A stretch of DNA of 64,000 bases from Eledone cirrhosa. Lineage: Eukaryota. The stretch covers positions 8,618,001 to 8,682,000 of the forward strand of contig OZ024744.1 of assembly GCA_964016885.1 (NCBI GenBank). The letters are read 5' to 3'. Of this stretch, positions 12,677 through 64,000 are shown one piece after another. Below the pieces are notes generated by a model that saw nothing but the letters and a program-made list of their open reading frames with translations, did no database searches and had not been told where the DNA came from. Positions within the stretch are counted from its first letter, which is position 1. Every line of letters begins with the position of its first letter. The translations under genes were made by a program, and so were the position numbers.

Positions 12677-13472
12677 AGAATGAGAAATAAGATAGATTGA
12701 GGGGATGGGCGGGTTGGAATTGGAAAAAATGTCTTTAGATAAAAATAGCAGGTTCATTCATGTTGACATCTCTAATGAAATATATCCATACACACATAAA
12801 ATATCCATACACGCAATAAAATACATCAAAACTTAAAACTAGAGACGATCTGTACCGAATGTAAGATTACATAATTCGTTGAGTATCCTATTAAATTTAA
12901 TTAAAAAATACTTGATAACGATCAATGTTTCCCTTATATGTGACGAATGGCTGGTGCGTGTTTGTACAATCAGCTCCAAGAAAAGTGCGTGTTGTCGCTC
13001 TGTATTTTTTTTGCCGGAGGGTCTGTGTTATTTTTATGACGTCCGTTTGTGACATCAGAGCTATCTCACCACAGGTGTCGCTTCGCTACATATGTATTCT
13101 CCACAAAATCAGAATATATTTCACAAAATAACGGTGAAATTAGATATTTTGAAACGTATCATCAGTGATGGAATTCCAAAATCACTGAATCTCTCCAATA
13201 CAGGGTTGAATGTGGCTAAACGTACATGGTATATTTAGCGTGGGCTAAATTCATATATTGAAACCATTATTCAACTACTATGACCTCATCAGACAGCTAG
13301 AATTTGAACAGAAAAAAACAGAACAACATATTGACTCCGGAGTAAACAGACCCACCTGCACACTTCGTGGCGTTGAGTGTTCTACCCTGCATAGTGAACA
13401 CATACTTGAATTTATATATAATAATAGTAATAATAAAAAAATAATAATAATAGTAATAATAATAATAATAAT

Positions 13473-14205
13473 AAGGAATGTTAATGGCTGCGCAAGAGCA
13501 GGCCCACAAAACGAAGTGGTTGAAACACCATATTTACAAGGAGGAGGCTAGCCCACTGTGCAGGATCTGTGGAGAGAGAAAGGAGACTGTGGCTCACATT
13601 GTATCCGAGTGTAAACACCTAGCCCAGACTCACTATAAAGGCTGGAAACATGATGTGATGGGCAGAGTGATCCACTGGCATCTATGCAATGTAAACAATT
13701 TACCACATTCTGAGAAGTGGTATGAGCATAAGCCAGAGGCGGTGATAGAAAACGATCAGGTGAAGGTGCTGTGGGATTTTAGGAGACAGACGGACAAGAA
13801 ACTGGAACACTCTAGACCTGACCTGGTGGTTTTGGACAAGGAAAAAAGATCGTGTCTGATTGTGAATGTGGCCTGCCCATTCGACACGAGAGTGCAAGAG
13901 AAGGAGAGGGAGAAAATTAACCGATACAAGGACTTAAAGTGGGAGGTAAAAAGGATTTGGAACTGCCATGAAGTCAAAGTGGTCCCGATTGTCATAGGCG
14001 CACTAGGTACTGTCTCAAAAAGTTTCCAGGGATGGTTAAAGAAAATTGGCCCCTTCACGCTTTTTAGAACGCTTCAAAAGGCATGCTTGCTAGGAACAGC
14101 AAGAACCCTCCGATACGTCCTGAATATCTGAGGCTGCAGGTAGTGGTTTGATATTCATTTCAACAAACTTTCCAGTTAACTAACATCAATGACTGAGACT
14201 CAAAG
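13473..14205 (+). mobile_element. R4/Dong-clade family A, 5'-truncated (CCHC + RLE endonuclease + 3' UTR)
   Basis: ORF 13478-14131: CRICG..ETVAHIVSEC, RPDLVV, KINRYKDL, PIVIGALG. (AAT)n on both sides. Confidence 0.93.
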
Positions 14206-14223
14206 AACAACAACAATAATAAC

Positions 14224-14267
<44 letters not shown>

Positions 14268-15250
14268 GGGAAGAAGACGCACGAGGTGGCGGAGGTCATG
14301 AAATCGCTCCCGTAAGTTTTGAATTTTTAACATATTTAAATCATTTGTGAAATAACAACTCTTAGTACAAATGCTACGTAAAGCACCCGGCTTGAGCCCC
14401 CAAAAATTCGGACCCAAAATATATTGTTATAAGGCTCAAATATTCAAATATTCAACTTTGTATTGTACACTGTATATCCAAAAAAGAAAATGGCTATAAA
14501 TGGAAGAAGAACCCCCCGCCCCCTCCTCTCCTCTGTCTACACTATATAGAACAGCCAAACTCACCAACACCAGAAACTAGATACACCACCCACCTCATCA
14601 CCTGTGTACACTAAACACAACAGCCAGATAACGGCAATTTCGCCACCACCGCTCACTACTGCCATCATTACCACCACTATCCTATCACCGCCGCCACCAC
14701 TCCTTCACTCCTTCACTGCTACCACCGCTACAACACCATCACTACGGTAATACGACCACATCACCACCACCACTGCCTCGGTATCGACATCACCACCACC
14801 ACCACTGTCTCAGTATCGCTACCGCCGCCAGTCTCCACTTCTCCCAGCTGGCTGCTGCCACCACATTATAGAATTCCTACTACTAAAAAAGAGGAAGGCA
14901 TCAAAATATATAGATAGACTCAAAAGAAAAAAGAAAAAAGAAACAACAAAACCAAAGCAGCACAGCAACAACAGCAAAAAACGAGAAAAACAAACAGAGA
15001 AAAACAAAAACAAAAAAAAACAAAAAACGTAAAGAAAATAAGAATGAAGAGAGAAGCAGGCGGACGGACAGAGAAGAGGGAGGAAAAACTAAAACTAAAA
15101 AAACAAAAACTAAGTCAGACATTCGAACACTACATTACAATGAAACTTATTCATTTTTGGGGCCCTTTCTGCCTGTGTGTTTGTTTGTTTATGTGTGTTC
15201 GTATACAGCGTGGTGATAATGCCACACAAGGGCCAAGTGGAACGGCGAAT
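14268..15250 (+). promoter_or_regulatory. 5' module 'M' / long 5' UTR preceding R4 family A ORF
   Basis: Starts gggaagaagacgcacg immediately after (AAT)n. Close copy at 49148-49900 and diverged copy at 22060-22830, each upstream of an R4 ORF. Confidence 0.55.
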
Positions 15251-15336
15251 CCACAGATGGCTATGTAACCATACATTCGCCAATCCTCGATAAGAATGTT
15301 TAAATATCGAACATAAACAGTTCGAATAACGGTGAA

Positions 15337-18300
15337 ATGGAGACTAGAACGTCATGTGACAGACTCTCACCCAACAGGTGCCCCCTGGCTCAGCAGCAGG
15401 AACCTGACTGTCAACCAAATACTGCTGATGTTGGAGGAAGAAAAAGAAGGAAAGGGGGCAGAACCAACTGGACGAAAGAATTGAATAGAACTGTTATGCA
15501 ATGTTACCTGAAAAGTAACCCCAAGGAGAGGGGCTACAGGAGACGGATGCATAATATCTGGAACGAGATTGGTCTATTTAAATTAGATGAACAAAAATTG
15601 GCCGAGCAGGCTCGGGTAATAAGAACTAATGGGTGGATAAGCGAGCTGGAACTGGAGGAACTGAGCAGAGAGAATGGCTTGGAGATGGCGGGTGTAGTAT
15701 GCCAGACAAGCGAGCCAGTGGGAAATGAAGGTGAAGAGGTCCTGAGAACGGAGGAACCACCCGAAGCAGACAATGATCTGAATACTGAGATAAATAATAC
15801 CTGGAACAGAGATACGGCCACTGAGGAGATGAATGCTGACGGGCTAGGACAAGATTCGGTTGACATCCTAAATTTAGTGGTAGATGAATTGAACAATGAT
15901 AGTGGGAGACCTATGAACCTAAGATTTGTAGACAGGAAAAAGTTAAAAGAAACAACAGCTAAGGTAAACAAAGTCATCCCATACCTTGAGGCGAGGAGCC
16001 TTCACCAGTGCAACAATATCCTCAAAGCAACAGCAAATACGGTGAGGAAACTACTTGGTATAAAAGCGAGAGGGAACAACAGACAACAAAGAGCAGAGCC
16101 GTGGTGGAAGAAACCACTGAGTGGTCAAATCGGGGAAATGAGAAATGACATAGGAAAGCTTGAGTCACTACTGAATGGGACACTAAAAAACATAGGCACT
16201 AAAAATAGACTGGAAATAAAGTACAAAACTAGGGGGGAAAAGCTAAATATTATCATAGAGGAACTGAAGCAACGCATTGTAGCAAAGAGTGCAAAAATCA
16301 GGCGATACGAGAACAGAGTCAGTCAGTATAAACAGAACCGCATGTTCGACAACAACCAGAAGATGTTGTTTGGACAGCTTGAGGGGAAAGAAAGAGGCAA
16401 CGACTTGATCCCTGGGGCGGAGCAAACTAAAACATTCTGGAGAGGAATATGGGAGCAGGATGTTAGACATAATGTCCAGGCAGGGTGGATTGAGACAGTA
16501 CAGAGGGAGATCGGTGAGCAGGCACACCAACAAACTGATTTGAGTATCACAGTTGAAACTCTTAAGGGGCAGGCCAAAAAACTAACCAACTGGAAATCAC
16601 CAGGCCCAGATGGTGTGCAGGGGTATTGGATTAAACATTTAACATCCCTCCACCCGAAGCTGACGGCCATGTTCAATGACTGCTTGGTGTCGGGTGAGGT
16701 GCCAGAGTGGTTGACAAAAGGTACCACAGTTCTGATAATGAAAGACCGAATCAAGGGTAATGATGTTACCAACTATAGACCTATCACATGTCTGTCCGTA
16801 ATGTGGAAACTGTTGACGAGCATTGTGTCTGAGGAAATCTACCATCACCTCCACACAAACAACTTGTTACCGGACGAACAGAAAGGATGCCGAAAGAAGT
16901 CACGTGGTACAAAGGACCAGTTACTTATTGATAAGATGGTAATGGGGAATTGCAGGAGGAGACACACTGATCTTGCCATGGGATGGATAGACTACAGAAA
17001 GGCATTTGACATGGTGCCTCATTCTTGGATCACCAAAAGCCTAGAGATCTTCAGGGTGGCAGATAACATCAGACAGTTGCTGGGCAGGAGTATGGGGTCC
17101 TGGGAGACAGAGTTGACATCAACTGGAGTATCCTTGGGAAGCGTGAAGATCAAGAGAGGTATCTTCCAGGGAGATAGCCTGTCCCCTCTGTTGTTTGTCC
17201 TTGGCCTGATGCCCTTGACCATTATGCTGCGAAAAGTGAGAGCAGGATACAAGTTGGGGAAGGGAGAGCTTACCATCAATCACCTCCTCTTCATGGACGA
17301 TCTTAAGCTCTTCGGGAAAAGTGAGAAGGAGTTGGATGTGCTTGTTGACACTGTCCGTATTTTCAGCAGTGATATATGTATGCAGTTTGGTATTAATAAA
17401 TGTGGAGTCATTGTGATGAGGAGGGGTAGGTTGAGCAGAAGTAACGGGATCCAGATACCAACAGGTGAGATGATAAAGGAAATTGACTCTGAGGAAGGAT
17501 ACAAGTATTTGGGCGTTCTGGAGGCTGATGGCATAAAGAACAAAAAAATGAACGAATTGTTAAGAACTGAATACATTCGGAGAGTAAGGAGCGTATTAAA
17601 GTCACATCTGAACATCAGAAATGCCATAAGCGCAGTAAATTCCCGAGCTGTGTCTATTATTAGGTACAGTGCGAGAATTCTGAGATGGAATGTTGCTGAA
17701 CAAAAAGAAATGGATAGGAAGACTAGAAAGCTATTGACTATCTACAACATGTTCCACAAGAGGAGTGATATCGATAGACTCTACCTAAGGAGATCTGAGG
17801 GTGGAAGAGGTCTTATCAGCATAGAGGACTGTGTTCAGATGGAGAAAAACAACCTATACAAATACGTGCCCTATAGTAAGGAGCCAATGCTCAGAACTGT
17901 ACTGAAGGAGGGGACAGTAGGCCAGGGGATGTCCAAGGAGGAAATAACATCAAGGAGGAAGAGCAGCCTTACGGGAAAATCCCTTCATAGTAACTTCTTT
18001 GAGAAAACTGAATTTAGAGATCCACAGACATGGAACTGGTTGAGAAGAGGAGACCTCAAAAAGGCTACAGAAGGAATGCTAATGGCTGCGCAGGAGCAGG
18101 CCCTCAAAACGAAGTGGTTGAAGCACCATATTTACTAGGAGGAGGCTAGCCCACTGTGCAGGATCTGTGGAGAGAGAGAGGAGACTGTGGCTCACATTGT
18201 GTCCGAGTGTAAACACCTAGCCCAGACCCACTATAAGGGCTGGAGACACGATGTGATGGGCAGGGTGATCCACTGGCACCTGTGCAAAATAAACAATTTA

Positions 18301-18728
18301 CCACATTCTGAGAAATGGTATGAGCATAGGCCAGAGGCGGTGATGGAGAACAATCAGGTGAAGGTGCTGTGGGATTTTAGGATACAGACGGACAAAAAAC
18401 TGGAACACAATAGACCTGACCTGGTGGTTGTGGACAAAGAAAAAAATCGTGTCTGATTGTGGATGTGGCCTGCCCTTTCGACACGAGAGTGCAAGAGAAG
18501 GAGAGGGTAAAAATTAACCGATACCAGGACCTAAAGTGGGAGGTGAAAAGGATTTGGAACTACCATGAAGTCAAAGTGATCCCGATTGTCATAGGCGCAC
18601 TGGGGACTATCTCCAAAAGTTTCCAGGGATGGTTAAAGAATATTGGCCCCTTCACGCTTTTTGGAACGCTTCAAAAGGCATGCTTGCTTGGAACAGCAAG
18701 AACCCTCCGATACGTCCTGAATATCTGA
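15337..18728 (+). pseudogene. R4 family A ORF: 933-aa open RT portion (15337-18138), endonuclease cut off by a stop and a frameshift
   Basis: WKSPGPDG, NYRPITCL, WIDYRKAFD, GIFQGDSLSP, LFMDDLKL, YKYLG, GGRGL. TAG at 18136-18138 and a 1-nt loss near 18445. Confidence 0.92.
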
Positions 18729-18832
18729 GGCTGCAGGTAGTGGCTTGATATTCATTCCAACGGACTTTCCAGTTAACCAACATCAATGACTGAGATTCAA
18801 GGAATAACAATAATAATAATAATAATAATAAT

Positions 18833-19187: not shown

Positions 19188-19195
19188 CTAATAAT

Positions 19196-21848
19196 AGAGT
19201 CTCATGAGCTGTTAGCCCAACTTTACAATGAAATAGTTAAGGAGCCAGAAAAGATATCATCATGGCTAGTTAACGGCATTACATTCCTGCTTCCGAAGAA
19301 TGATGTGACAAACAATCCCAAAAATTACAGACCGATAACTTGCTTGACCACAATGTATAAAATTTTAACATCAGTCCTAACTGAATACACATATGACCAC
19401 CTGATAACAAATGACCTATTTCCCATTGAGCAGAAAGGGTGTAAACGAGGCTCATATAGCTGTAAGGATCAGCTTCTGGTTAACAAAATGATACTGGAAG
19501 ATTGTCATAATAGACACAAAAATCTATCGATTGCTTGGATAGATTATAAAAAAGCATTCGATAGTTTGCCACACAGTTGGATTGAAAAATGTTTAGAGAT
19601 TTTCAAAATATCTCCCGTGGTTTTTGTCATTCAGTATGAAGACATGGAAAACGACACTCCTTTTGAATAGTGAAACAAAATCACTGGAAGCTGGAGAAGT
19701 TAATATTAATTGTGGAATTTTTCAGGGTGAATCTTTATCACCGCTTTTATTCTGCATCGCACTTATACCATTAAGTAAAATGCTCAATGAAACAAAACAT
19801 GAATATAAAGTCTATGACAAAACCATTAATCACCTGTTCTACATGGATGACCTGAAACTATTTGCAAAAAATGATGAACAATTGCAAGGGCTATTATCCA
19901 CTGTGGAGCAGTTCAGTGATGACATTAAAATGGAGTTTGGACTAGATAAATGCGCCAAAGCAACGTTCACCAGAGGAAAGCTGCTGAAGAGTTCAGACAT
20001 TAATCTTGATCGGGGGAACGTGATAAGAGAACTTGATCAAGAAAAAACTTACAAATATCTAGGTGTTTGTGAAGGAGACGGAATCAAGCACTCGACAATG
20101 AGGGAAAGGATAAGGAAGGAATGTTACCGCAGAGTAAGAGCAATCTTAAGAACGGAATTGAATGCAAGGAATAGGATCGATGCCATAAACACGCTTGCCA
20201 TACCAGTAGTAACCTACAGTTACAATGTCATCAACTGGTCAAGCACAGAGATCCGTAGGCTCGATACAAAAATTCGAAAATTCTTAACCATGCACAGAAT
20301 GCATCACCCTAAGGCAGATATAGATAGAATATATCTCCCTAAGAAGGAAGGAGGACGTGGGTTAATCCAGTTAGACATTGCGTTGAAAACTGCAACAATT
20401 GGATTATCTACATATCTAAGGGAATCACATGATTGGATGATCAAACTCGTTTTGAAACACGAAAGCATCAAAAGATCATATTCCATTACAAAAGATGCAC
20501 AAAGATACAGTAATGGACTACAAATTTCAGAAGTCCCATTTACTGCTGAAATGGAAAACACAGAAAAAGCAAAGCAGGTAAAAGTAACTGCAAAGAAAGA
20601 ACTGCTACAGAAACTGGCTAAGAAATTATTATTATTATTATTACAGTTGCATTTATCTTACTTTATGTTCATACGAGTTATCACCAAGTTACAACCAGTG
20701 ACCTCAAGAGACAACAAGGTCCGCCATGTTCAAGGAAGAACATACATATTCACACATGCATCTTTTGCTCAATTTTTCAAATGTTTTATAGATACATTCT
20801 TGTCTATTGGAACAGACATATCAATTAGCAGGCATACCCTCTTTTTAAAGTCCTTCAATATTATATCAGGTCTATTTGCATCTATTTTTCGGTCTGCTTG
20901 GATGCTACAGTTCCACAAGATTGAGATGTGATCTTTTTCAAGTATGGGAGGTGGTTGATGCTCACACCAATTTTTTTGATGGGGCAGGTCAAAATGCTTA
21001 CACATTATCCAATGTATGTATTGTGCAGCTCTGTCATGAAATCGGAGACTGAAGGACTGATTATATCAGCTCAGGATCAGTGTCTGCCAACAAAAAATTA
21101 CCAAGCCAACATAATAAAAAATCAATGCAACCCATTATGCCGTGTATGTGAAAAACAACCAGAGACCATTGATCATATAATTTCAATGTGCAGTCCTATA
21201 GTTCCAACCGAATACCTAAACAGGCACGACAGAGCTGCACAATACACATTGGATAATGTGTAAGCATTTTGACCTGCCCCATCAAAAGAATTGGTGGGAG
21301 CATCAATCACCTCCCATACTTGAAAAAGTTCACATCTCAAACTTGTGGAACTGTAGCATCCAAACAGACCGAACAATAGATGCAAATAGACCTGATATAA
21401 TACTGAAGGACTTTAAAAAGAGGGTATACCTGCTAATTGATATGTCTGTTCCAATAGACAAGAATGTATCTATAAAAACATTTGAAAAATTGAGCAAGTA
21501 TAAGGACCTGGAGATAGAAATTGGAAAAATGTGGAAATTGAGAACTAAAACAATACCAGTGGTTGTAGGCGCTCTGGGAATGATACCTAAGGGGTCTAAT
21601 GATTACTTTTCGCAAATCCCAGGGAACCCGCGTATAGGAGAAATACAAAATATAGTACTAATGGGAACTGCCCATATACTAAGGAAGATTCTGTCAATAT
21701 AAGTACATCACAAGTCTAAACACTAAAGATGTATGTGTGAATATGTATGTTCTTTCTTGAACATGGCGGACCTTGTTGTCTCTGGAGGTCACTGGTTGTG
21801 ACTTGGTGATAACTCGTATGAACATAAAGCAAGATAAATGCAACTGAA
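19196..21848 (+). mobile_element. R4/Dong-clade family B, 5'-truncated, with internal inverted 3'-end copy
   Basis: NYRPITCL, WIDYKKAFD, LFYMDDLKL, CRVC..ETIDHIISMC, RPDII. Near-identical to 51756-54099. Confidence 0.92.
20626..21039 (-). mobile_element. Inverted family B 3' end (with internal deletion) embedded in family B copy
   Basis: Reverse complement of 21226-21497 and 21726-21860, including the tail, which reads (ATT)n on +. Confidence 0.9.
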
Positions 21849-21890
21849 ATAATAATAATAATAATAATAAAAATAATAATAATAATAATA

Positions 21891-22040
21891 CTTTCTTTAT
21901 TAACCACAATAGTTTACATAAAGTAGACGTTAAGGAAAGTACAGGACAATACAGGATGGTACAAATGGGCATTTCTGCGTGTAAAAAAACAAAAACAGAG
22001 GATGTAATAAAATAATAATGAAAAATTCCCCAATAGGGGA
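21891..22040 (-). mobile_element. Tx1-clade ~150-bp 3' UTR stub
   Basis: Matches the Tx1 3' UTR including AATAAA on -; (AAT)n on both sides. Confidence 0.88.
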
Positions 22041-22059
22041 ATAATAATAATAATAATGA

Positions 22060-25000
22060 TATTAATAATAATTTATAATAAACAACTGTGATAGAATAAT
22101 TCTTATTACAAATGAAATATAAGATATAAGATTACAGGTTTCACTTTCAGCAAGCGGCAACGCATCACATTACGACATAGGACCCCAATATTTAATATTT
22201 AATTTTGGATCAGAGATGTTATAGTCGAAAAAGAGAAATACAGGCAAATAATTTCACCACCAACACCACCACCGCCACCATCACCACTACCACGCGAAAA
22301 AACTCTAGTCAAGTTACCTCAACTTCTATTTCTACTTCAACTTCAACACCATCACTACAGTACTACGATCACATCACCACCACTTCCTCATTATCGCTAT
22401 CGCCGCTAGTCTCTCCCACTACCTCCTACTAAGTACTACTAGCACATCACCACCACCACCACTGCCTTATTATCGCTACCGCCGCTATTCTCTCCCACTA
22501 CCTCCTGCTAAGACATGCATCGTAGTATTCCCACTAAATGAGGAAGGCATCAAAAGATATAAATAGACTGATTTGATGACCCGGTCAAAAAATCAAAAAG
22601 TCAAAAATCAAAATCAAAACAGCACAGCAGCAACGAAAAACGTAAAGAAAAGAAAAAAGAAAAGAAAAACAAACAGACAGACAGACAAGCAAAAAAACTA
22701 AGTCAGACATTCAAACATTACATTACAATGAAACTTATGCTTATTTTTTGGGGTTTATACCTATTTGTTTGTTTGTTTATTTATGTTCGTCTACAGCGTG
22801 ATAGTGCCACACTAAAATCACTGGGGGTGATCAAATCACCGGAGGTGATGAAATCACCGGTGGTTATGTAACCATACATTCACCAATCCTCGATAAGAGT
22901 GTTTAAATGTCGAACCTAAACAGTTCGAATAACGGTGAAGTGGAGACTGGAATGTCATGTGACAGACTCTCGCCCAGCAGGTGCTCCCTGGCTTAGCAGC
23001 AGGGACCTGGCTGTCAACCAAATACTGCTGGTGTCGGAGGAAGAAGAAGAAGGAAAGGGACCAGAACCAACTGGACGAAAGAATTGAATAGAACTGTTAT
23101 GCAATGTTACCTGAAGAGTAACCCCAAGGAGAAAGGCTGTAGGAAACAGATGCATACCATCTGGAACGAGATTGGTCTATTTAAATTAGATGAACAAAAA
23201 TTGGCCGGGCAGGCTCGGGTAATAAGAACTAATGGGTGGATAAGCGAGCTGGAACTGGGGGAACTGAGCAGAGAGATTAGGTTGGAAATGGAGAGTGGAG
23301 TATGCCAGGCAAACGAGCCAGTGGGAAATGAAGGTGAAGAGGTTGAGAGAACGGAGGAACCACCCGAAGCAGACAATGATCTGAATGCTGAAATATATAA
23401 TACCTGGAACAAAGATACGGCCATTGAGGAAATGAATGCTGACGGGCTAGGACAAGCTTTGGTTGATATCCTAAACTTAGTGGTAGATGAAATGAACAAT
23501 GATAGTGGGAAACCTATGAACCTAAGATTTGTAGACAGGAAAAAGTTAAAAGAAACAACAGGGTAATGATGTTACCAACTATAGACCTATCACATGTCTG
23601 TCCGTAATGTGGAACTGTTAACAAGCATTGTGTCTGAGGAAATCTACCATCACCTCCACATAAACAACTTGTTACCGGACGAACAGAAAGGATGCCGAAA
23701 GAAGTCCCGTGGTACAAAGGACCAGTTATTTATTGATGAGATGGTAATGAGGAATTGCAAGAGGAGACACACTGGTTTTGCCATGGGATGGATAGACTAC
23801 AGAAAGGCATTTGACATGGTGCCTCATTCTTGGATCACCAAAAGCCTAGAGATCTTCAGGGTGGCAGATAACATCAGACAGTTGTTGGGCAAAAGTATGA
23901 AGTCCTGGAAAACAGAGTTAACATCGGGTGGAGAATCCTTGAGAAGCGTGAAGATCATGAGAGGTATCTTCCAGGGAGATAGTATTTCCCCTCTGTTGTT
24001 TCTCCTTGCCCTGATGCCCCTGACAATTATACTCCGAAAAGTGAGAGCAGGATACAAGTTGGGAAAGGGAGAGCTTACCATCAACCATCTCCTCTTCATG
24101 GACGATCTTAAGCTCTTCGGGAAGAGTGAGAAGGAGTGGGATGTGCTTGTTGACACTGCCTGTATTTTCAGCAATGATATATGTATGCAATTTGGTATTA
24201 GTAACTGTGGAGTCCTTGTGAGGAAGAGGGGTAAAATGAGCAGAAGCAACGGAATCCAGGTACCAACGGTTGAGATGATAAAGGAAATTGACACTGAAGA
24301 AGGATACAAGTATTTGGGCGTTCTGGAGGCTGATGACATCAAGAACAAAAAAATGAAGGAATTGTTAAGAACTGAATACATTCGGAGAGTAAGGAGCGTA
24401 TTAAAGTCACATCTGAACAGTAAGAATGCCATAAGTGCAGTGAATTCCCGAGCTGTGTCTATTATTAGGTACAGTACGGGAATTCTGAGATGGAATGTTG
24501 CTGAACAAAAAGAATGGATAGGAAGACTAGGAAGCTATTGACTATCTACAACATGTTCCACAAGAGGAGTGATGTCGATAGACTCTACTTAAGGAGATCT
24601 GAAGGTCGAAGAGGTCTTATCAGCATAGAGGACTGTGTTCAGATCGAGAAAAACAACCTACACAAATACGTGACTGACAGTAGGGAGCCAATGCTCAGAA
24701 TAGTACTGAAGGAGAGGACAATAGACCAGGGGATGTCCAGGGAGGAAATAACAAGAAGGAGGAAGAGCAACCTTCATGAAAAATCCCTTCATAGTACCTT
24801 CTTTGAGAAAACTGAATTCAGAGATCCACAGACATGGAACTGGTTGAAAAGAGGAGACCTTAAAAAGGCTACAGATGGAATGCTAATCCCTGCGCAAGAG
24901 CAGGTCCTCAAAACGAAGTGGTTGAAACACCACATTTAGAAGGAGGAGGCTAGCCCACTGTGCAGGATCTGTGGAGAGAGAGAGGAGACTGTGGCTCACG

Positions 25001-25605
25001 TTGTATCCGAGTGTAAACACCTATCCCAGACTCACTATAAGGGCTGGAGACATGATGTGATAGGCAGGGTGATCCACTGGCACCTATGCAAAGTAAACAA
25101 TTTACCACATTCTGAGAAGTGGTATGAGCATAAGCCAGAGTCGGTGATAGAAAACGATCAGGTGAAGGTGCTGTGGGATTTTAGGATACAGACGGACAAG
25201 AAACTGGAACACAATAGATCTGACCTGGTGGTGTTGGACAAGAAGAAAAATCGTGCCTGATTGTGGCCTGCCCATTGGACACGCGAGTGCAAGAGAAGGA
25301 GAGGGAGAAAATTAACCGATTCCAGGACTTAAAGTTGGTGGTAAAAAGGATTTGGAACTGTCATGAGGTCAAAGTGGTCCCGATTGTCATAGGCGCACTA
25401 GGTACTATCTCAAAGAGTTTCCAAGGATGGTTAAAGAAAATTGGTCCTGCCCCGCTTTTTGGAACACTTGAAAAGGCATGCGTACTGGGAACAGCAAGAA
25501 CCCTCCGATACGTGCTGAATATCTGAGGCTGCAGGTAGTGGCTTGATATTCATTTCAACAAACTTTCCAATTAATTAAATAACATCAGTGACTGAGACTC
25601 AAAGA
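22060..25605 (+). mobile_element. R4/Dong-clade family A, decayed, ~0.8-kb internal deletion
   Basis: Homologous to 14340-18802. The junction at ~23560 joins KKLKETT directly to GNDVTNYRP. Ends at (AAT)n. Confidence 0.92.
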
Positions 25606-25620
25606 ACAATAATAATAATA

Positions 25621-26396
25621 CTTTCTTTATTAACCACAAGGGTTTACATAAAGTAGACATTAACGACAGCACAGGACAATACAGGACGGTACAAATGGGC
25701 ATTTCTGTGTGTAAAAAACAAAAACAGAGGATGTAACAAAACAAATAACAATGAAAAATTCCCCAATAGGGGGGACACTTCCGAGGGAAATTTGTGGAGA
25801 AAGCCCGTTAAAAGGCCACAGTGACCTTGACCACCAGGTCAAGTGCCCTCTCCCAGTTTTCCACCTTTAATTTACAGACACATACTCAGAATAGACCCAT
25901 TCACTCGGGCCATTCTTGCTTCTCTCACCCATCTTACAACAAAATGCTGGGAAGAGAGCCCTTCTCTCTCTACCCTGATTTTCCTTTTCAAATGAAATTT
26001 GAAAAAGTCAATCAGGGCATCAGCGAAGAGGTAAGTGCTCGTCTTCAGCCTATTCAGACGCGTCGAAAATACTATCTCTTTCGCCATGGCCACCAGACAG
26101 ATAAAAACAGCCTGCCGTTCCCGACTAAAGGATGAGAGCGGGGAAATCCTCACGATGGACTCAGCTGATAGCCGGATCCGTCCTACACGCGACAGCAGGT
26201 GTTCGACATAAACCCACAAGTCAGCAATGTTCGGACAGTGGTCGAGTGCGTGCAGGACGGTTTCGTCGCCCTGCGCGCATCTCGGACATGCCCGGCTGAC
26301 GGGACCTCCATGCCTGTAGAGTTTTTCCCGAACTGGCAAAGCTCCTCGGTAGCACTTCCAGGCCAGGGATTTCTGGAATTTGTCCATAGGCCACAA
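25621..26396 (-). mobile_element. Tx1-clade subfamily 1, 5'-truncated (ORF2 C-terminal zinc finger + 3' UTR)
   Basis: ORF 25872-26396 CPRCAQGDETVLHALDHC; matches 54939-55720. Confidence 0.9.
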
Positions 26397-26399
26397 GGG

Positions 26400-26830
26400 C
26401 TGACATCAAGAAAAACATTATAGACGCCACAGGACGGTACAGGACGGTACAAGGTGGGTTTTGTGAGTGTAAATATTTTTATTATTTATACAAAAAAAGA
26501 AAAAAAGGACATAGAAACATATATATAAACAATAAAAATGAAAATTGAAACAATGAAAAATTCCCCAATAGGGGCAAACCTCTGAGGATTACTCGTGGAG
26601 AAAACTACACAAATGACCACGGCCACCCTGACTACCAGGGCAAGCGCCATCTCTCAATTTTTCCTCCATTTTTCAAACTACAGACGTATATTCAGAGTGG
26701 TCCCGTTCACTCGGACCATTCTCGCTACATTCACCCACATTTCAACAAACTTGCTGGAAGGCCCCACTTGCCTCTCCACCCTGATTTTCCTCTTCAAGTG
26801 AAACTTGAAAAAGTTAATTAGGGATTCGAT
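26400..26830 (-). mobile_element. Tx1-clade subfamily 2, 3' fragment
   Basis: FFKFHLKRKIRVER C-terminus; 3' UTR resembles 35590-35860. Confidence 0.8.
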
Positions 26831-26855
26831 AATAATAATAGCGACAATTATAATG

Positions 26856-31759: not shown

Positions 31760-31840
31760 TGTTTCTACTTTTGGCACAAGGCCAGCAATAACACAGTACA
31801 TTACTGGTACTTTTATTGCATCGACCCCGTCAGGATGAAA
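31760..31840 (-). mobile_element. SINE 3' fragment
   Basis: Homologous to 1041-1130 and 35400-35485. Confidence 0.7.
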
Positions 31841-32099
31841 TATATACACGCACACACGTACATATCTATACACACATACACACACACGATAACAATTAAC
31901 AGTGCTGCGAGCAAATGTGGCTTTTAACCCAACCAATGATCTAAAATGTCTTGCACAGAGTTGCCAACCAAAATATTCACTGGGAATAGTCGGCTGTGGC
32001 TGGAATTCGTGTACTTTTGCATGTCATTTGAGTCCTCCTGCTGATTTACATTCTCTACCACATGTTTGGCAAGCATGATGAGTAGCATCTCCAACTGCA

Positions 32100-35000: not shown

Positions 35001-35372
35001 CAAGAGCAGTCTTGACAGCAAATCCTACCACAGCCTCTCTTCTGGTTCCTTCATCTCTTCCTTTCCAGAAGAATGTATATTCTCCACAAAATTCTGTAAG
35101 ATGACCATCTCCAGCTAGCCTCGTCTCAGATAAAGCCACGATGTCAAGATCGTAACGTCGAAGCTCCTTTGCAACAAGAGTGGTCCTTCGTTCAGGACGT
35201 TCGGAATAATCCCTGTCAAGCAGTGTCCGTACTTTCTAACAGCCAATATTCAATTTTTTGTTTGGTTCTACCACAGTAGCACGATGGCGAGCGGGCCCAG
35301 GCTGTGATACCTAGGGCCCCTGCCCTTATTGCCAATTATCTCTTTTATATTGTTTTGGAACATCATTGAATT
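32100..35372 (-). mobile_element. RTE-clade LINE, decayed, same family as 2706-5783
   Basis: ORF pieces 34648-35139, 33134-34276, 32746-33222 and 32164-32649 nearly identical to the + copy. Retains a C-terminal C2H2-like CSVC...SHLRSH. Confidence 0.92.
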
Positions 35373-35399
35373 GGAAAAAAAGTAATAATAATAATAATA

Positions 35400-40822: not shown

Positions 40823-40869
40823 AATAATAATAATAATATTAATAATAATAATAATAATAATAATGATAA

Positions 40870-43205: not shown

Positions 43206-43215
43206 GAATAACAAC

Positions 43216-43251
<36 letters not shown>

Positions 43252-49073: not shown

Positions 49074-49133
<60 letters not shown>

Positions 49134-49147
49134 AAGAAGAAGAAGAA
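49073..49147. repeat. Compound (AAT)n(AAG)n microsatellite
   Basis: Visible switch from AAT to AAG units at ~49104. Confidence 0.95.
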
Positions 49148-49900
49148 GGGAAGAAGACGCACGTGGTGGTAGAAGGTCATGAAATCGCTCCCGTAAGTTT
49201 TTGATTTTTAACATATTTAAATCAATTGTGAAATAACAATTCTTAGTACAAATGATGCATAAATCACCGAATCAAGTCTCATAAAAATTTGGATCCATAA
49301 TATATTGTTATATCGCTCAAATATTCAATTTTGTATTATATATTTTATATTCAAAAAAGAAAATGGTTATAAATGGAAGAAACCCCCCCCCCCTATGTCT
49401 ACACTATATAGAACAGCCAAATAACAGCAATTTCACCAACACCAGAAACTAGATACACCACCTACCCCATCACCCGCTGTGTACACTAAATATAACAGCC
49501 AGATAACGGCAATTTCACCATCACCACCATCACCACCAATCCCAGCATCATAATAATAATAATTATTATTATTGTCTCAAGTTTTAACAAAATGTTTAAT
49601 TCCAATATTAAGATAATATATCAACACATATATTAAACATACGCGACACAAACGCATAGATACTACAGATCAAACAAAACTACAGTCTATTCAACAAAAC
49701 ACCGTAACGACAACGCCACCGTGCCACCACTCCATCCATCATTGCTACCACTATCCCATCACCGCCGCCACCACTCCTTCATTGCTACCACCACTATTCC
49801 CCCATTACCTTCTGTTAACTTAAGAAAGGGGAAGGTGGCGGTATCACTAGACAAGGGAGAGGCTAGCAAAGATATAAATAGATTGACTGAGTGACCCGGC
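49148..49900 (+). promoter_or_regulatory. Second close copy of 5' module 'M'
   Basis: gggaagaagacgcacg...aaatcgctcccgtaagtttt...accagaaactagatacacc aligns with 14268-14920. Confidence 0.6.
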
Positions 49901-50034
49901 CACCGGCCAAACGTCAACAACTATGGTACTGCTGGCTCCCCCCCTTCCCCACCAACAATATAAAAAGCCCCAGCACCACCACCGACATAGCCAACAACAA
50001 TAACAGGCAACTTCAGCAAAAAGTATATTATATT

Positions 50035-50092
50035 ATTGTAATGCACTGGGTAATTGCTGGCCTTGTGCCTGGAGTGGAGACAATTATTAATA
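50035..50092 (+). mobile_element. SINE 3' fragment
   Basis: gtaatgcactgggtaattgctggccttgtgcc...gagacaattatt is the reverse complement of the SINE end at 35400-35450. Confidence 0.65.
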
Positions 50093-50169
50093 ATTTCATT
50101 CTTAAGCCACGCAATACTCACATTAAGGAACCACTCATGATAAAAACAATTTAAAAAAAAACAACAAAA

Positions 50170-53100
50170 AAGAAAACCCAGTGACCAAGAAATACCGGGA
50201 TGGCGGCCGGCGGGGAATAGCCGAGTCTTGGTTGACACTCGTCCTAGAAGTGGTAACACGAAATGATTACCCCTTGGCGGATAAGGATAACACGCGACAA
50301 AATAAAGTAAATGTCTAATGATAAAATCTCATACAGGATCGGCCGTCACCCGGGTCAAAAAGGCCCGCGTCCCTCAGAGAGGTACCAGACTGGGGTCGAA
50401 AAATCAACTAATGGTTCAAACCTTCCCATCACTTCGGAGCTCGAGACCTCCCATAACCGGAATACTCCTACTGTTGGCCCTCCATGTTCACCAATAAGAA
50501 ATCCAAAGAAAAAGAGAGAAAAATGGTCAAGAGAAGATAATAAAGAAGTCCTTGAGGCTTTCTACACTGCCATGTACTACCCATCAAATACATCGAATAC
50601 AGAACAGACATATATCAACTGGAAAAAGAAACATCCCGAAAACAGAGGCTATAATGACAGTAACAAACTAGCCAATATACGAAGAAATATTGTAAGAAAA
50701 ATGTTACTAACTGATATAAAAATTGATCAGATCAAGCTATTAGCACAAAGTCAGCGAAGGGAAAATGAAACATGTGACAGTGAAAACGAGGTAAATTATA
50801 ACACTTCGAATCCCAGGGTTGGGGCGGAATCACTGACAACAGAACAAATTAAAGAAAGGATCGAAAAAGTGGAGGGAGTGCATGCTCAAGATGAAACTCC
50901 AAATGAAAACAATGAGATCGTAAATGATAAAGAAATGAATGAGAATGAACTTGCCAACTTGAAGGATGAAATTATGATCGAATGGATGAAAATGAAAGAA
51001 TCTGACATGGGGCAACGAGACACCCTCCCTAAGATCCAGAACTCCAAACAGAACCAAAAGATAATACACAAGACTAACATAATTCTCAAAAACATTATCA
51101 TCACAAACAAACTAAACATTACTGATTTAAGTCATCTCTATTATGCATCGGCTAAAGTCACCACTCACTTATGTGGAGTGAAGATGAAAAAACAAAGGAA
51201 TTCCCACAAGAAATCTACTTGGCAAGAGAACATCAATCGCCAAATAAACCTTCTCCGATCTGACATAGAAATTTTTACAAACTATAAAGTAGGTGAACAT
51301 GTTAAAACAAACTAAACTTAGAAAATTGAAAAGAAAGTACAGTATAAAATCAACAAGAGACATAGACATGCTGATAGAAATAATCAAGCAAAAAGTGTCG
51401 GCCAAAGCTGCTCGTATAAGGCGCTTTGAAAAACGATCTAGATTCTATAAGGACAATAATATGTTTAAAACAACCAAAGAAATATCTACAGAAAAATTGG
51501 TAAGTCAACAATAACTGCTAAATCAATACCACCCAAGGAGGAAGTGCAAGAATTCTGGGAAAAGATCTGGGCCGAAGAAAAAGTTCATAATATACATTCC
51601 CCATGGATAGACAGACAAATGAAAGATACAGCTCACCTTGAAGAACAAATATGGGAAAATATAACAGTTGAACAGTTGCGTTTGGCTCAAAACCAGCAAA
51701 TAGAAATCCCCAGGAAAAGACAAAATACAAATTTTTGGATAAATGCCTTCACAGAGTCTCATGAGCTGTTAGCCCAAATTTACAATGAAATACTTAAGGA
51801 GCCAGAAAAGATACCATCATGGCTAGTTAACGGCATTACATTCCTGCTTCCGAAGAATGATGAGACAAACAATCCCAAAAATTACAGACCGATAACTTGC
51901 TTGGCACAATGTATAACATTTTACAATCAGTCCTAACTGAATATACATATGACCACCTGATAACAAATGACTTATTTCCCATTGAGCAGAAAGGGTGTAA
52001 ACGATGCTCATATGGCTGTAAGGATCAGCTTTTGGTTGAAAAAATGATACTGGAAGATTGTCATAATAGACACAAAAATCTATCAATTGCTTGGATAGAT
52101 TATAAAAAAGCATTCGATAGTTTGCCACACAGTTGGATTGAAAAATGTTTAGAGATTTTCAAAATATCTCCCGTTGTCAGGAGGTTTTTATCATTCAGTA
52201 TGAAGACATGGAAAACGACACTTCTTTTGAATAGTGAAACAAAATCACTGGAAGCTGGGGAAGTTAATATTAATTGTGGAATTTTTCAGGGTGACTCTTT
52301 AACACCGCTTTTATTCTGCATCGCACTTATACCATTAAGTAAAATGCTCAATGAAACAAAACATGGATATAAAGTCTATGACAAAACCATGAATCACTTG
52401 TTCTACATGGATGACCTGAAACTATTTGCAAAAAATGATGAACAATTGCAAGGGCTATTATCCACTGTGGATCAGTTCAGTGATGACATTAAAATGGAGT
52501 TTGGACTAGATAAATGCGCTAAAGCAACGTTCACCAGAGGAAAGCTGCTGAAAAGTTCAGACATTAATCTTGATCGGGGGAACGTGATAAGAGAACTTGA
52601 TCAAGAGGAAACTTACAGATATCTAGGTGTTTGTGAAGGAGACGGAATCAAGCACTCGACAATGAGGGAAAGGATAAGGAAGGAATGTTACCGCAAAGTA
52701 AGAGTAATCTTAAGAACGGAATTGAATGCAAGGAATAGGATCGATGCCATAAACAGGCTTGCCATACCAGTAGTAACCTACCGTTACAATGTCATCAACT
52801 GGTCAAGCACAGAGATCCGTAGGCTGGATACAAAAATTCGAAAATTCTTAACCATGCACAGAATGCATCACCCTAAGGCAGATACAGATAGAATATATCT
52901 CCCTAGGAAAGAAGGGGGACATGGGTTAATCCAGTTAGATTTTGCGTTGAAAACTGCAACAATTGGATTATCTATATATCTAAGGGAATCACATGATTGG
53001 ATGATCAAACTCGTTTTGAAACACGAAAGCATCAAAAGATCATATTCCATTACAAAAGATGCACAAAGATACAGTAATGGACTACAAATTTCAGAAGTCC

Positions 53101-54098
53101 CATTTACTGCTGAAATGGAAAACACAGAAAAAGCAAAGCCCGGAAAAGTAACTGCAAAGAAAGAACTGCTACAGAAACTGGTTAAGAAATGGCAAGAAAA
53201 GCCTCTGTATGGAAAATACCCAGAACAAGCTAACAATCCTGATGTTGACAAAACTTTAACCCATCAGTGGTTGGCATCCTCTGGACTGAAATCGGAGACT
53301 GAAGGACTGATTATATCAGCACAAGACCAGTGTCTGCCAACAAAAAATTACCAAGCCAACATAATAAAAAATGGATGCAGCCCATTATGCCGTGTATGTA
53401 AAAAAACAACCAGAGACCATTGGCCATATAATTTCAATGTGCAGTCCTATAGCTCCAACCGAATACCTAAACAGGCATGACAGAGCTGCACAATACATAC
53501 ATTGGATAATGTGTAAGCATTTTGACCTGCCCCATCAAAAGAATTGGTGGGAGCATCAACCACCTCCCATACTTGAAAAAGATCACATCTCAATCTTGTG
53601 GAACTTTAGCATCCAAACAGACCGAAAAATAGATGCAAATAGACCTGATATAATATTGAAGGACTTTAAAAAGAGGATATGCCTGCTAATTGATATGTCC
53701 GTTCCAATAGACAAGAAAGTATCTATAAAAACATTTGAAAAATTGAGCAAGTATAAGGACCTGGAGATAGAAATTGGAAAAATGTGGAAATTGAGAACTA
53801 AAACAATACCAGTGGTTGTAGGCGCTCTAGGAATGATACCTAAGGGGTCTAATGATTACTTATCGCAAATCCCAGGAAACCCGCGTATAGGAGAAATACA
53901 AAAGATAGTACTAATGGGATCTGCCCATATACTAAGGAAGATTCTGTCAATATAAGTACTTCACAAGTCTAAACACTAAAGATGCATGTGTGAGTATGTA
54001 TGTTCTTTCTTGAACATGGCGGACCTTGTTGTCTCTGGAGGTCACTGGTTGTGACTTGGTGGTAACTCGTATGAACATAAAGCAAGATAAATGCAGCT

Positions 54099-54099
<1 letters not shown>
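50170..54099 (+). mobile_element. R4/Dong-clade family B, full length, decayed
   Basis: ORF pieces 50311-53955: KWSREDNKEVLEAFY, RIRRFE, NYRPITCL, GIFQGDSL, LFYMDD, CRVC..H..C, RPDII; (AAT)n tail 54100-54150. Confidence 0.93.
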
Positions 54100-54150
<51 letters not shown>

Positions 54151-54151
<1 letters not shown>

Positions 54152-54862
54152 GCAGGCCCTCAAAACGAAGTGGTTGAAACACCATATTTACAAGGAGGAG
54201 GCTAGCCTACTGTGCAGAATCTGTGGAGAGAGAGAGAGAGGAGACTGTAGCTCACATTGTATCCGAGTGTAAACACCTAGCCCAGACTCACTATAAGAGC
54301 TGGAGACATGATGTGATGGGCAGGGTGATCCACTGGCATCTATGGAAAGTGAACAATTTACCACATTCTGAGAAGTGGTATGAGCATAAGCCAGAGTCGG
54401 TGATAGAAAACGATCAGGTGAAGGTGCTGTGGGATTTTAGGATACAGACGGACAAGAAACTGGAACACAATAGACCTGACCTGGTGGTTTTGGACAAGGG
54501 AAAAAGATCGTGTCTGATTGTGGATGTGGCCTGCCCATTCGACACGAGAGTGCAAGAGAAGGAGAGGAAGAAAATTAACCGATACAAGGACTTAAAGTGA
54601 GAGGTAAAAAGGATTTGGAACTGCTATGAAGTCAAGGTGGTCCCGATTATCATAGGCGCACTAGGTACTATCTCAAAGAGTTTCCAAGGATGGTTAAAGA
54701 AAATTGGCCCCTTCACGCTTTTTGGAACGCTTCAAAAGGCATGCCTGCTGGGAACAGCAAGAACCCTCCGATACGTCCTGAATATCTGAGGCTGTAGGTA
54801 GTGGCTTGATATTCATTTTAACAAACTTTCCAGTTAACTAACATCAATGACTGAGACTCAAA
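54151..54862 (+). mobile_element. R4/Dong-clade family A, 5'-truncated
   Basis: Matches 13495-14205; (AAT)n on both sides. Confidence 0.92.
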
Positions 54863-54940
<78 letters not shown>

Positions 54941-60733: not shown

Positions 60734-60974
60734 GTTGTTTTTTGTTTAAAATGAATATTGGGTACAAAACCCCAATAACTGGTTATTTAGCCCCGAAGGG
60801 CCAAATAACGGACAGAAAGACCCCTCTCACGAGGAGGAGGGTGTCTTTATCAACAATTTGGTTCAAGTTTTAAACAATTTACAATTGTTTTAACGGTTAA
60901 AAATTACTATACCTTACAGAGCCGAGCCTCCGTCAACCATGGCATTCAATAATAATAATAATAATAATAATAAT

Positions 60975-63900
60975 GATTTCTTTATTAACCACAAGGGTTT
61001 ACATAAAGTAGACATTAAGGATAGTGCAGGACAATACAGGACGGTACAAATGGGCATTTCTGCGTGTAAAAAACAAAAACAGAGGATGTAACAAAACAAA
61101 TAACAAAGAAAAATTCCCTAATAGGGGGGAGACTTAGGAGGGACATTTGTGGAGGAAGCCCATTAAAAGGCCACAGTGACCCTGACCACCAAGGCAAGTG
61201 CCCTCTCCCAGTTTTCGACCTTTAATTTACAGACACATACTCAGAGTAGGCCCATTCACTCGGTCCATTCTTGCTTCTCTCACCCATCTTTCAACAAAAT
61301 GCTGGGAAGAGAGCACTTCCCTCTCTACCCTGATTTTCCTTTTCAAATGAAATTTGAAAAATCAATCAGGGCATCACCGAAGAGGTAATTGCTCGTCTTC
61401 AGCCCTTTCAAACGTGTCCACCATACTATCTCTTTCGCCATGGCCACCAGACAGATAAAAATTGCCTGCCCTTCCTGGCTAAAGGAAGAAAGCGAGGCAA
61501 TCCTCACGATGGACTCAGCTGATAGCTGGATCCGTCCTACACGCGACGGCAGGTGTTTGACATAAACCCACAAGTCAGCCATGCTCGGGCACTGGACAAG
61601 TGAGTGCAGGACGTTACATGCCCGGGTGACGGCACCTCCTTGCCTGTAGAGTTTATCCCGAACTGGCAAAGCTCCTCGGTAGCACTGCCAGGCCAGGGAT
61701 TTCTGGAAGTTGTCCATAGGCCCCGGCCCGAAAGTTCTTCCGAAGAGATTGGCTAGTTGATTTTTGTCGACACCTAGAGTTTCCCCAAGTACGTAGTCGC
61801 TCTACCGATCCACTAATCCTCTATAGGACGCCAAGGTGGAGTTTCTACCGATCACATTGCCCGATTGGTCGAGGGCTGTGAGCGCCAGAAGACATTCCAG
61901 TCTCCAAGCGCTCCCTCTCGGTCTTTGCTTGACCCAGGACTGCAGCTCCGTCAAGGAGACGAGCTGAGGAAAAACGTGTCTAGCAAACGGCGACCACACC
62001 TGATCACCGTCGAGGAAGAGGTGGAGAAGTCGTAGCCTGAGTGCGTGTCTGCGCATCATCAGCCACAGCATGCCCAGCCCTCCACGTAGCGGGTGTTGAC
62101 AGCAGGGTGTTGACCATCGGAGTGCGTTCCTTCCACAAAAAGCGAAATAGCAAACGCTCCAGCGCAGTCAAGATACGAGGGTCAGGCGGTAGTAGATGAC
62201 GGACGCTATGTACGCGTTAGCCACCTCCGCTCGACCTTTCAGGGATAGTTTTCTCTCAGCCCATTTCTGCGTGATCCAATTCGGGAGATCCAATCGGTAC
62301 CTGTCAGACAGTTCAAAACGCCTGAGCAGGTTGGTGAGGCTCTTGCACCCTCCACCCCTATCCGCTAATCCCACACAGTCCCAGCGTGCATCTAAGATCC
62401 CGTTCCAGTCGCCCACTAACACTAAAGAGCGGGACGTTCCAAGAAAGGTCTCCAGACGCCGGAAGAAATCAGGCCGCCCTGCTCCTGTCGGGGCATAGAC
62501 GGCCACTAGCCTGAAAGCTTGCCCGTCTCCGCTGGTCACGTCCACCACCACCAACTTACCTTCTGGGTCCAGGAAGATGGCCAGTATGGCGAGATCCAAA
62601 CCTCTCCGAAAAAGCACAGCAACTCCTCCCCCCGATCCAGGAAAGGCTGGGAGATGCGTACACATCGTAGCCACCGAAGATCGGTGCGAAGGCCCGTGCT
62701 TCGAAGATTCTGGTCTCGCTGATGGTCACTACATCTATGTTTAGTGACCTGAGGTCGTTGAGCAGGTGGCCCTGCTTCCATGACGACCCCAAGCCACGCG
62801 CATTTATGCTGCCTATTCTGAGTGAGGTCATGTTGAAATGGAGTGGAAAAGATGGGAAAGACCACTTACCTTACTTCTCTTAGAGGAAGGATGGTTACTC
62901 CATCCTCTTCACTGCTTGTGACCTCCTCCGGAAGGATGTCCTTATAAATCCTCCTGGAGAGTGCTTGTCGGAAGTCTCACATGTTTTTGGTGAATCTTTG
63001 TTTTAGTGTCGTGTGCGTTTTCTGTGTGATGCGAGTGATTTGTATGTGTGGAGGGGGTGTGAACTTTTGGGGTGTTGTATAGTCTTTTTCTGTGATGCTG
63101 GTGCTCTTTTGGATGTAGTGTAATAATTGGCTGTTGTTCAAATGTAATGCTGTGTAGCGTGTATCGTTTTGGTCGTTTTGTTTTGTTTGCGTTTGTTGTG
63201 GGTTTGTTTCTGTTTCTCTTTTTGGTGACCTTTGTGGTGTTGGTGATGGTGGTGTTGGGGTTAATGATGGTGATGGTGTTGGTGTTTGTGGTGATGGGGT
63301 TGGTAATGCTGGTGTGGATAGTGGCATAGCTGTCCTAACTTTTTTGTTTGATAGTTTATTTGTTCCCCTATGTATTTTGTTTTTGGAGGGGGGAAGGAAG
63401 GGGACTTTTTTCTTTTTTGGCTTCTTTTTCTTTTTTTCTTTTTTCCTGATACCGTTTCCCACTCTCCGTCGTCACAATCTGTTTCCAGTTGCGATAGGTC
63501 GGGGAGTGAAACATCCTCCACAGGCGTTTGTTTTGGTTGTGGCGTGGTGGATGGTGTAGGCGCTGGTGCTAGTTCTGGCGCGTTGGGTGGTGGTGGTGTT
63601 GGTTTTGCTACTGTTGCTGGGGTTGTTGCTGTTCCAGTTGCTTCTGTCGTTGCTGCTACAGTTGTTGCTGCCATCTCTGCTGCTGGTGGTGTTGATGGTT
63701 GAGTCACTGGGGTGGGTAAGAGAGGTGTCCTCAACCTTTTAGCCTGAGTCCAGAAAGCCCTTAGGTGGGTTCCTTCACCACAGACGACATACCTAGGCCT
63801 TCTGCCCTCGACGATTACGGTGAGGTGGCTGCCGTCAGTGAGGTCTATTACCTCTGGGATCTCCTCAACGCTTTTTTGGTCCGCTTGGATCAGGAGCTCC

Positions 63901-64000
63901 ATCCCAGATCCGGACCAGTTCTCCTGCTTTTCTTTTGCTATTTCGATTATCTTGGTGTTGGCATCGATGCCGGCGAGGACGGCAGCCATTAGCCAGGGAA
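60975..64000 (-). mobile_element. Tx1-clade subfamily 1, internally deleted (RT core missing), runs off window
   Basis: The junction at ~62275 joins endonuclease (DRYRLDLPN) to post-RT (TQKWAERK); ORF1 pieces 62866-63989. Confidence 0.92.

Follow-up and report, generated by a model that had tools for sequence, protein, structure and literature searches.

The stretch analysed here (the window) comprises 64,000 nt of Eledone cirrhosa DNA, contig OZ024744.1, positions 8,618,001–8,682,000, and all positions given below are window positions. It is AT-microsatellite-rich, and most of it is an array of retrotransposons of two unrelated clades, R4/Dong-type and Tx1-type, interspersed with (AAT)n microsatellite tracts. 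The junctions between elements were resolved by self-BLAST, translated searches (tblastn) and a junction table, with boundaries placed by hand. Between 13,418 and 64,000, 49,796 of 50,583 bases (98%) are retroelement sequence, arranged in 21 pieces (Table 1). An initial annotation of this DNA had described about 20 elements, mostly separated by (AAT)n, in a 50-kb array. Most joints are tracts, but four junctions lack one, and the array runs past the right edge of the window such that its length exceeds 50 kb. Within 13,475–64,000 there are seven R4/Dong-type copies, all on the plus strand, and nine Tx1-type copies, all on the minus strand; these counts and strands stand as first annotated, as does the inverted R4-type 3' fragment, placed by self-BLAST at 20,625–21,038. 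Both clades are present as described, but an RTE element on the minus strand, three pieces of a short interspersed nuclear element (SINE) and three plus-strand segments resembling Tx1 leaders had been overlooked.

Table 1 Retroelement copies, tracts and associated segments of the array.
Feature	Position	Strand	Description
Left boundary (AAT)n tract	13418–13474	+	Between non-element flank and A1; unexplained by any tail
R4-A copy A1	13475–14267	+	5'-truncated; (AAC)/(AAT)n tail
Segment X1	14268–15300	+	Tx1-like 5' leader and low-complexity region, collinear with the following R4-A body (A2)
R4-A copy A2	15301–18832	+	Near full length: reverse transcriptase (RT), CCHC knuckle, restriction-like endonuclease (RLE); one stop, one frameshift; tail
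Tx1 C1	18836–19188	-	3' tip joined to internal ORF2 piece; 5'-truncated; 5' end adjoins AAT-phase run 19,189–19,197
R4-B copy B1	19198–21889	+	5'-truncated; (AAT)n tail; holds the inverted B 3' piece
Tx1 C2	21890–22039	-	150-bp 3' tip; 5' end adjoins (AAT)n 22,040–22,081
Segment X2 and R4-A copy A3	22082–25619	+	Internal deletion; tail
Tx1 C3 and Tx1 D	25620–26828	-	Fused via GGCC microhomology; D is a divergent subfamily, 5' end adjoins short AAT run
Tx1 E	26855–31717	-	Decayed, full span; 58–79% amino acid identity to C5 ORF2 (pieces of at least 49 residues); 5' end adjoins (AAT)14
SINE 3' tip	31760–31835	-	Last ~45 nt like Tx1-type 3' ends; ATT-phase tail
RTE-type element	31860–35383	-	Apurinic/apyrimidinic endonuclease (APE) and RT; part left of 32,354 assigned by inference
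SINE copy	35404–35586	-	ATT-phase tail 35,384–35,403; head joins copy F directly
Tx1 F	35587–40822	-	Decayed mosaic without ATT tail; 5' end adjoins (AAT)n 40,823–40,869
R4-A copy A4	40870–43251	+	5'-truncated; one frameshift; RLE region intact; tail
Tx1 C4	43254–49073	-	Full span, decayed; 5' end adjoins (AAT)10(AAG)15 at 49,074–49,148
Segment X3	49149–49950	+	Tx1-like leader, 81% to X1 over first ~380 bp; no R4-A body after it
SINE 3' tip	50040–50086	+	Short ATT-phase sequence on both sides
R4-B copy B2	50097–54150	+	Full span across several frames; (AAT)16 tail
R4-A copy A5	54151–54938	+	5'-truncated; (AAT)25 tail
Tx1 C5	54939–60947	-	ORF1 of 696 codons with CCHC knuckle; ORF2 of 1,143 residues with APE, RT and zf-RVT
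(AAT)9 spacer and Tx1 C6	60948–64000	-	Internal deletion; leaves the window
Five tail-free junctions			flank/A1, C1/B1, C2/X2, F/A4, C4/X3; all with AAT-phase tract, one of just 9 nt

The plus-strand copies fall into two families, A (A1–A5) and B (B1 and B2), which share 39% amino acid identity in the RT. Their translations contain an RT, a C-terminal CCHC knuckle and PD..D..K motifs; the patterns CxxC..H..C, RHD and RPD..D..K can be read in them. Pfam finds RVT_1 and does not find Exo_endo_phos, the APE domain, and R2 structures score above L1 in the structure comparison. The Dong/R4 organization, a single open reading frame (ORF) with RT, CCHC and PD-(D/E)xK motifs and without APE, is thus present, and so is the Dong/R4 target, (TAA)n with the sense strand reading TAA, at seven of seven 5' ends and seven of seven 3' ends in the window. 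All seven copies end in (AAT)n or (AAC)/(AAT)n, as initially annotated. The assignment to R4/Dong is made by domains, motifs and target, the sequence matches including no named Dong or R4 reference. Separately, three R4-type pieces drawn from both families, with starts at 13475, 54151 and 21029, have almost identical starting points in the protein, a short way upstream of the zinc knuckle, which suggests either a truncation hotspot or short non-autonomous derivatives.

The nine minus-strand copies (C1–C6, D, E and F) represent four subfamilies, C, D, E and F, which are strongly diverged yet have the same flank. ORF2 contains the Pfam domains Exo_endo_phos, RVT_1 and zf-RVT, with the catalytic motifs present in C5, and ORF1 carries a zinc knuckle, so that the Tx1 arrangement of an ORF1 zinc knuckle and an ORF2 with N-terminal APE, RT and C-terminal zinc finger is found. 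The best solved-structure match of ORF2 is human L1 ORF2p and its best named relative is an Argonauta hians protein with 72% identity. Copies E, F, C4 and C6 contain stops and frameshifts, and C5 alone has both frames open. The initial annotation had all nine copies tailed by (ATT)n; an ATT-phase 3' run occurs in seven, and that of copy E is degenerate. Most Tx1 junctions share one register, with a 3' run that starts with ATT and, in five of seven cases, a 5' flank that ends with ATT, which fits a cut at a T/A step. C4 and C5 are about 90% identical in ORF2 and only about 50% in ORF1 at the amino acid level, and positions 38143–39078 of copy F hold a C-type ORF2 segment, 88–91% identical to C4 and C5; these ORF mismatches, which extend to the ORF1 regions of F, C4, C5 and C6, are taken to be module swapping. 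Breakpoints at 19188 (C1), 28209 (E) and 62275 (C6) cluster at ORF2 residues 771–780.

Among tracts of at least three units in the array, 21 of 24 read AAT on the plus strand and three read ATT (binomial p = 3e-4), a count inflated by the element tails, whereas the flank (1–13,400) contains three AAT and four ATT tracts of this length. Tail-to-tail junctions yield the AAT phase trivially; polarity was therefore tested at junctions without a neighbouring 3' end. All five such junctions have an AAT-phase tract, compared with a chance expectation of about 0.5% of flank positions. AAT-phase sequence adjoins the 5' ends of all seven R4 copies and of seven of the eight Tx1 copies whose 5' end is visible, four of the latter without a neighbouring tail. 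Element tails alone were accordingly rejected as the source of the tracts. They are invoked by the explanation that the array built up passively in a low-recombination transposon hotspot. Such hotspots are known from Octopus vulgaris, in which 288 windows contain 76–94% transposon sequence with abundant Dong-R4 and L1-Tx1 (PMC13282606; here and below, cited sources are used in excerpt), but passive build-up leaves the five tail-free tracts and the 7:0 and 9:0 strand split unexplained and is scarcely credible.

The joining of dispersed repeats through (AAT)n during assembly would also produce an array in which most joints are microsatellites, as they are here. However, pure repeat in the array tracts extends to at most 75 bp, each copy has diverged on its own and at four joints there is no microsatellite. 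Moreover, joining through tails would give no (AAT)n at head-to-head junctions unless the flanks were real. An assembly artefact is thus highly improbable.

The identities of the copies bear on whether the array arose by insertion or by duplication. R4-A copies are 90.8–97.7% identical over their common 3' 700 bp and Tx1-C tips 89.5–96.8%. The closest R4-A pair, A2/A4, reaches 97.7%, whereas the neighbouring C1 and C4 are only 92.5% identical and differ in their indels, which argues against duplication of an A–C unit and for independent insertion. In addition, A1, A4 and A5 have three different 5' truncation points, and self-BLAST revealed no long block in the window more than 98% identical to another. 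An alternative view is that an R4-A/(AAT)n/Tx1-C unit was multiplied, chiefly through unequal crossing-over or segmental duplication, and that the polarity came from one or two founders. Such growth would account for the A-tail-to-C-tail junction being seen four times and is in keeping with the mosaic and internally deleted copies, which are products of recombination, and with the 96–99.7% identity of units in the arrays of relatives described below. The mismatched identities across the recurring A/C junction, the distinct truncation points and the lack of long near-identical blocks speak against it. As a main mechanism it was rejected on the discordant A and C identities, and we regard it as quite improbable.

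We propose that this array of more than 50 kb, with seven Dong/R4 and nine Tx1 copies facing in opposite directions, grew by independent insertions on opposite strands of one repeat, a reading to which we assign a probability of roughly 0.63. Under target-primed reverse transcription (outlined in PMC6530143), the Dong RLE would prime on the T-rich strand, such that the sense strand reads AAT, and the Tx1-type APE would prime on the A-rich strand, such that the sense strand reads ATT. The two element types would nick opposite strands of (AAT)n, and every new copy would end up flanked by repeat. The initial annotation had suggested RLE and APE enzymes nicking opposite strands of the same repeat. 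The two halves of that proposal fare differently: putative Dong/R4 targeting with the sense strand reading AAT is well supported, because distinct 5'-truncated copies adjoin the tract and relatives begin after AAT at 11 of 30 5' ends and after ATT at none, whereas use of the opposite strand by the Tx1-type enzyme is supported locally, by the 5' ends that adjoin the tract, with or without a neighbouring tail. When the R4 copies are taken out, what remains is a backbone of Tx1, SINE and RTE elements arranged head-to-tail, with (TTA)n spacers. This Tx1 lineage, which has relatives that stack as well, therefore likely forms the backbone, with Dong likely filling and lengthening the spacers. Later deletion and recombination, seen in mosaic ORF1s, internal deletions and one inversion, reshaped the array. 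Judged from the sequence, descent from a single ancestral (AAT)n tract is plausible.

A scan of prokaryotic genome bins identified 14 loci with relatives of the R4-type elements, several on contigs that look derived from animal hosts, and five of these genomes were searched further. Among 30 distinct 5' match ends, 11 follow AAT, none follows ATT, 14 follow neither and five are too short to assign; six of the 30 have at least five units within 8 nt. The nine 3' ends are followed by AAT in four cases, ATT in one and neither in one, with three too short. These flanks fit the published targeting of TAA repeats by Dong in silkworm, mosquito and snail (PMC3812793). The searched viral contigs held no relative of either the R4 or the Tx1 family, and in the ESM Atlas only unnamed RT clusters were matched. 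One full-length R4 relative (L081:131-260) begins after (AAT)31 with a head that may be derived from 5S rRNA, possibly a parallel case of promoter capture.

The metagenome scan for the Tx1 side returned distant Tx1-type relatives only, with 24–42% identity. A bacterial genome bin, G003, gave 86 matches, with many stop-free ORF2 relatives of 41–43% identity spaced ~6.4–6.8 kb apart. In a FastTree phylogeny of the RT, which contains no L1 or named Tx1 reference, the window lineage (support 100) branches together with U2-, 5S- and tRNA-flanked elements in no resolved order, and the G003 relatives form its sister group (support 100). Rfam matches to U2, 5S or tRNA were found for eight of the 20 distant Tx1 relatives scanned. 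Neighbouring G003 units are 96–99.7% identical and arranged head-to-tail, and each subfamily has its own short non-microsatellite spacer that is constant across contigs. In one array the spacer lies before two 5'-truncated copies and again behind the last copy, like a duplicated target. The contigs concerned (C3-C15 and C17-C19 of that bin, e.g. L125, L127, L130, L131 and L134) look animal, with stop-free Tx1-type arrays of tens of kb, and the G003 arrays offer a cleaner model of target-regenerating arrays than the window itself.

These sister arrays with re-used spacers support the proposed mechanism of growth, yet they also allow a different explanation, in which the Tx1-type element has no specificity for (TTA)n and re-inserts beside its own ends, a founder that happened to lie in (AAT)n having been copied with its spacer, and only Dong truly targets the repeat. 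Head-to-tail arrays in relatives at 41–43% amino acid identity, with short spacers that differ between subfamilies and are never (TTA)n, favour this explanation, as does the joining of copy F to a SINE head without a tract. On the other hand, ATT-phase flanks are common to the four divergent subfamilies and to a SINE with a Tx1-like tail that lies outside the array, and the spacer of the relatives tracks the subfamily across contigs, which resembles subfamily-specific target choice and not a random founder. A founder site is rather unlikely, though as the main rival it deserves serious weight. Stacking looks like a trait of the Tx1 lineage including its sister group, and use of (TTA)n appears particular to the window's Tx1 branch, where either the lineage switched its target or a founder site was inherited.

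Several results weigh against independent insertion on opposite strands. Evidence that Tx1 elements use (TTA)n is confined to the present window. Among the nearest Tx1 relatives with readable DNA, none of 31 printed 3' junctions, at 30 distinct places, has (TTA)n. None of 80 more distant relatives carries an AAT/ATT tract of at least five units. On the R4 side, one of the nine 3' ends of relatives is followed by ATT and not AAT. Within the array, the junction table shows no (AAT)n tract at C3/D, SINE/RTE, SINE/F and X3/SINE, and two of the nine Tx1 copies lack an ATT run, D having lost its 3' end in the GGCC fusion and F running straight into the SINE head. The three plus-strand X segments that resemble Tx1 5' leaders are possible exceptions to the polarity, and target-site duplications are unreadable inside a microsatellite.

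The R4-type copies resemble Bombyx mori Dong, DongAg and the snail DongBg in their single-ORF RT, C-terminal CCHC and RLE, and (TAA)n at both ends, within what is described as an RLE clade (R4; PMC4640811). A TAA unit precedes most 5' junctions, as in B. mori Dong, for which a (TAA)7-Dong junction primer and a hepatitis delta virus-like 5' ribozyme are described (PMC3774820). Unlike known Dong elements, two families just 39% identical lie at one locus, and family A has a long Tx1-like leader. Rfam scans of the window, with no match at the gathering threshold, and of two leader stretches, with chance-level matches only, gave no ribozyme match, though Rfam may lack a fitting model. The Tx1-type copies share with the Tx1-clade elements Kibi (TC)n and Koshi (TTC)n and with the crocodilian (TTCC)n/(TTTC)n families two ORFs, an APE-RT-zinc finger ORF2 and polarised microsatellite flanks. 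They differ in that the repeat is (TTA)n, which is not listed among the Tx1 microsatellite targets (TC)n, (TTC)n, (TTCC)n and (TTTC)n in the excerpts of PMC3812793 and PMC4494074, and in belonging to a separate octopod-linked lineage whose sister group uses non-microsatellite spacers.

Two families sharing one short repeat in opposite orientation, here seven copies on plus and nine on minus, and forming arrays are also known from TRAS and SART, both R1-clade elements at silkworm telomeres (PMC10088271). Those are both APE elements and telomeric, unlike the RLE and APE clades found here at an internal (AAT)n. Membership of the TRAS/SART system was rejected, one partner being an RLE element without APE and the window showing no telomeric repeat array. 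Arrays of Drosophila R1, for which growth by double insertion is described (bioRxiv 10.1101/158386), and of SINEU-3 (PMC4494074) are alike in that insertion does not use up the target and successive copies are stacked with target sequence between them; these are single-family arrays, whereas in the window two unrelated clades alternate, with SINE and RTE as passengers. In Octopus vulgaris, Dong-R4 and L1-Tx1 occur in large numbers and belong to the recently active LINE groups (PMC13282606; PMC8967140), and the excerpted text of this hotspot work contains no analysis of target or orientation. The literature searched holds no report of a Tx1 element that targets (TTA)n, or of one microsatellite being used jointly by an RLE and an APE clade; it mostly excludes subscription papers, and prior annotation in Repbase or Dfam is possible. 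Each ingredient has precedent, and the combination, together with (TTA)n as a likely Tx1-type target, is probably new. If correct, insertion on opposite strands would extend the range of Tx1-type targets to (TTA)n, would constitute convergent targeting in which two unrelated endonuclease folds read one repeat from opposite strands, and would supply a mechanism for octopus transposon hotspots, which have been mapped but not explained. The open-frame copy C5 and the sister lineage with different spacers permit a direct comparison for target switching by an APE endonuclease.

The SINE is a candidate passenger of the Tx1-type enzyme, based on the resemblance of its last ~45 nt to Tx1-type 3' ends, which was judged by eye. 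All four copies (1045–1196, 31760–31835, 35404–35586 and 50040–50086) end in ATT-phase sequence, and the one outside the array, at 1,045–1,196, has it on both sides. The excerpt of PMC4758252 contains nothing on octopus SINE tails. The RTE element of the array is 94% identical to a plus-strand copy at ~2,690–5,783. Both RTE copies have an ATT-phase run and then a T run at their start (2644–2700 and 35375–35403), which may be part of the element's 5' end or may mark a third family using the repeat.

Segments X1 and X3 begin at an identical base behind a tract and X2 begins about 70 bp further in; X runs collinearly into the R4-A body in A2 and A3. The resemblance of X to Tx1 leaders rests on a leader alignment test, in which the first 260 bp of X score z = 2.9–6.0 against the window Tx1 leaders, compared with 2.9–9.6 for Tx1 leaders among themselves; of 40 random flank windows, 39 score at most 2.4 and one 4.2. 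Low-word-size BLAST of X against the Tx1 ORF1 regions gave only low-complexity matches among those listed. Either family A has captured a Tx1 leader as segment X, or X consists of Tx1 fragments on the plus strand that run against the polarity. A GTAAGT lies ~44 nt from the start of X (14268–15300, 22082–22930 and 49149–49950), with a pyrimidine-rich CAG near 15,207. These motifs resemble a splice donor and acceptor, and GTAAG is similarly placed in the Tx1 leaders of C5, F and two G003 copies. A broader scenario, which we offer as tentative, is that the APE endonuclease of an octopod Tx1 lineage now targets (AAT)n on its A-rich strand and also mobilises the SINE, that this lineage and Dong provide landing sites for one another and so convert microsatellites genome-wide into mixed arrays that extend themselves, and that within such arrays Dong-A captured a Tx1 leader as its promoter region.

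Two minor features complete the description. The (AAT)n that leads into (AAG)n at 49074–49148 has a counterpart after the tail of an R4 relative in another animal (L085:12548-12640). In the AT-rich flank, a GC-rich stretch at 9450–10900 contains several frames of 155–159 residues and is possibly another decayed element.

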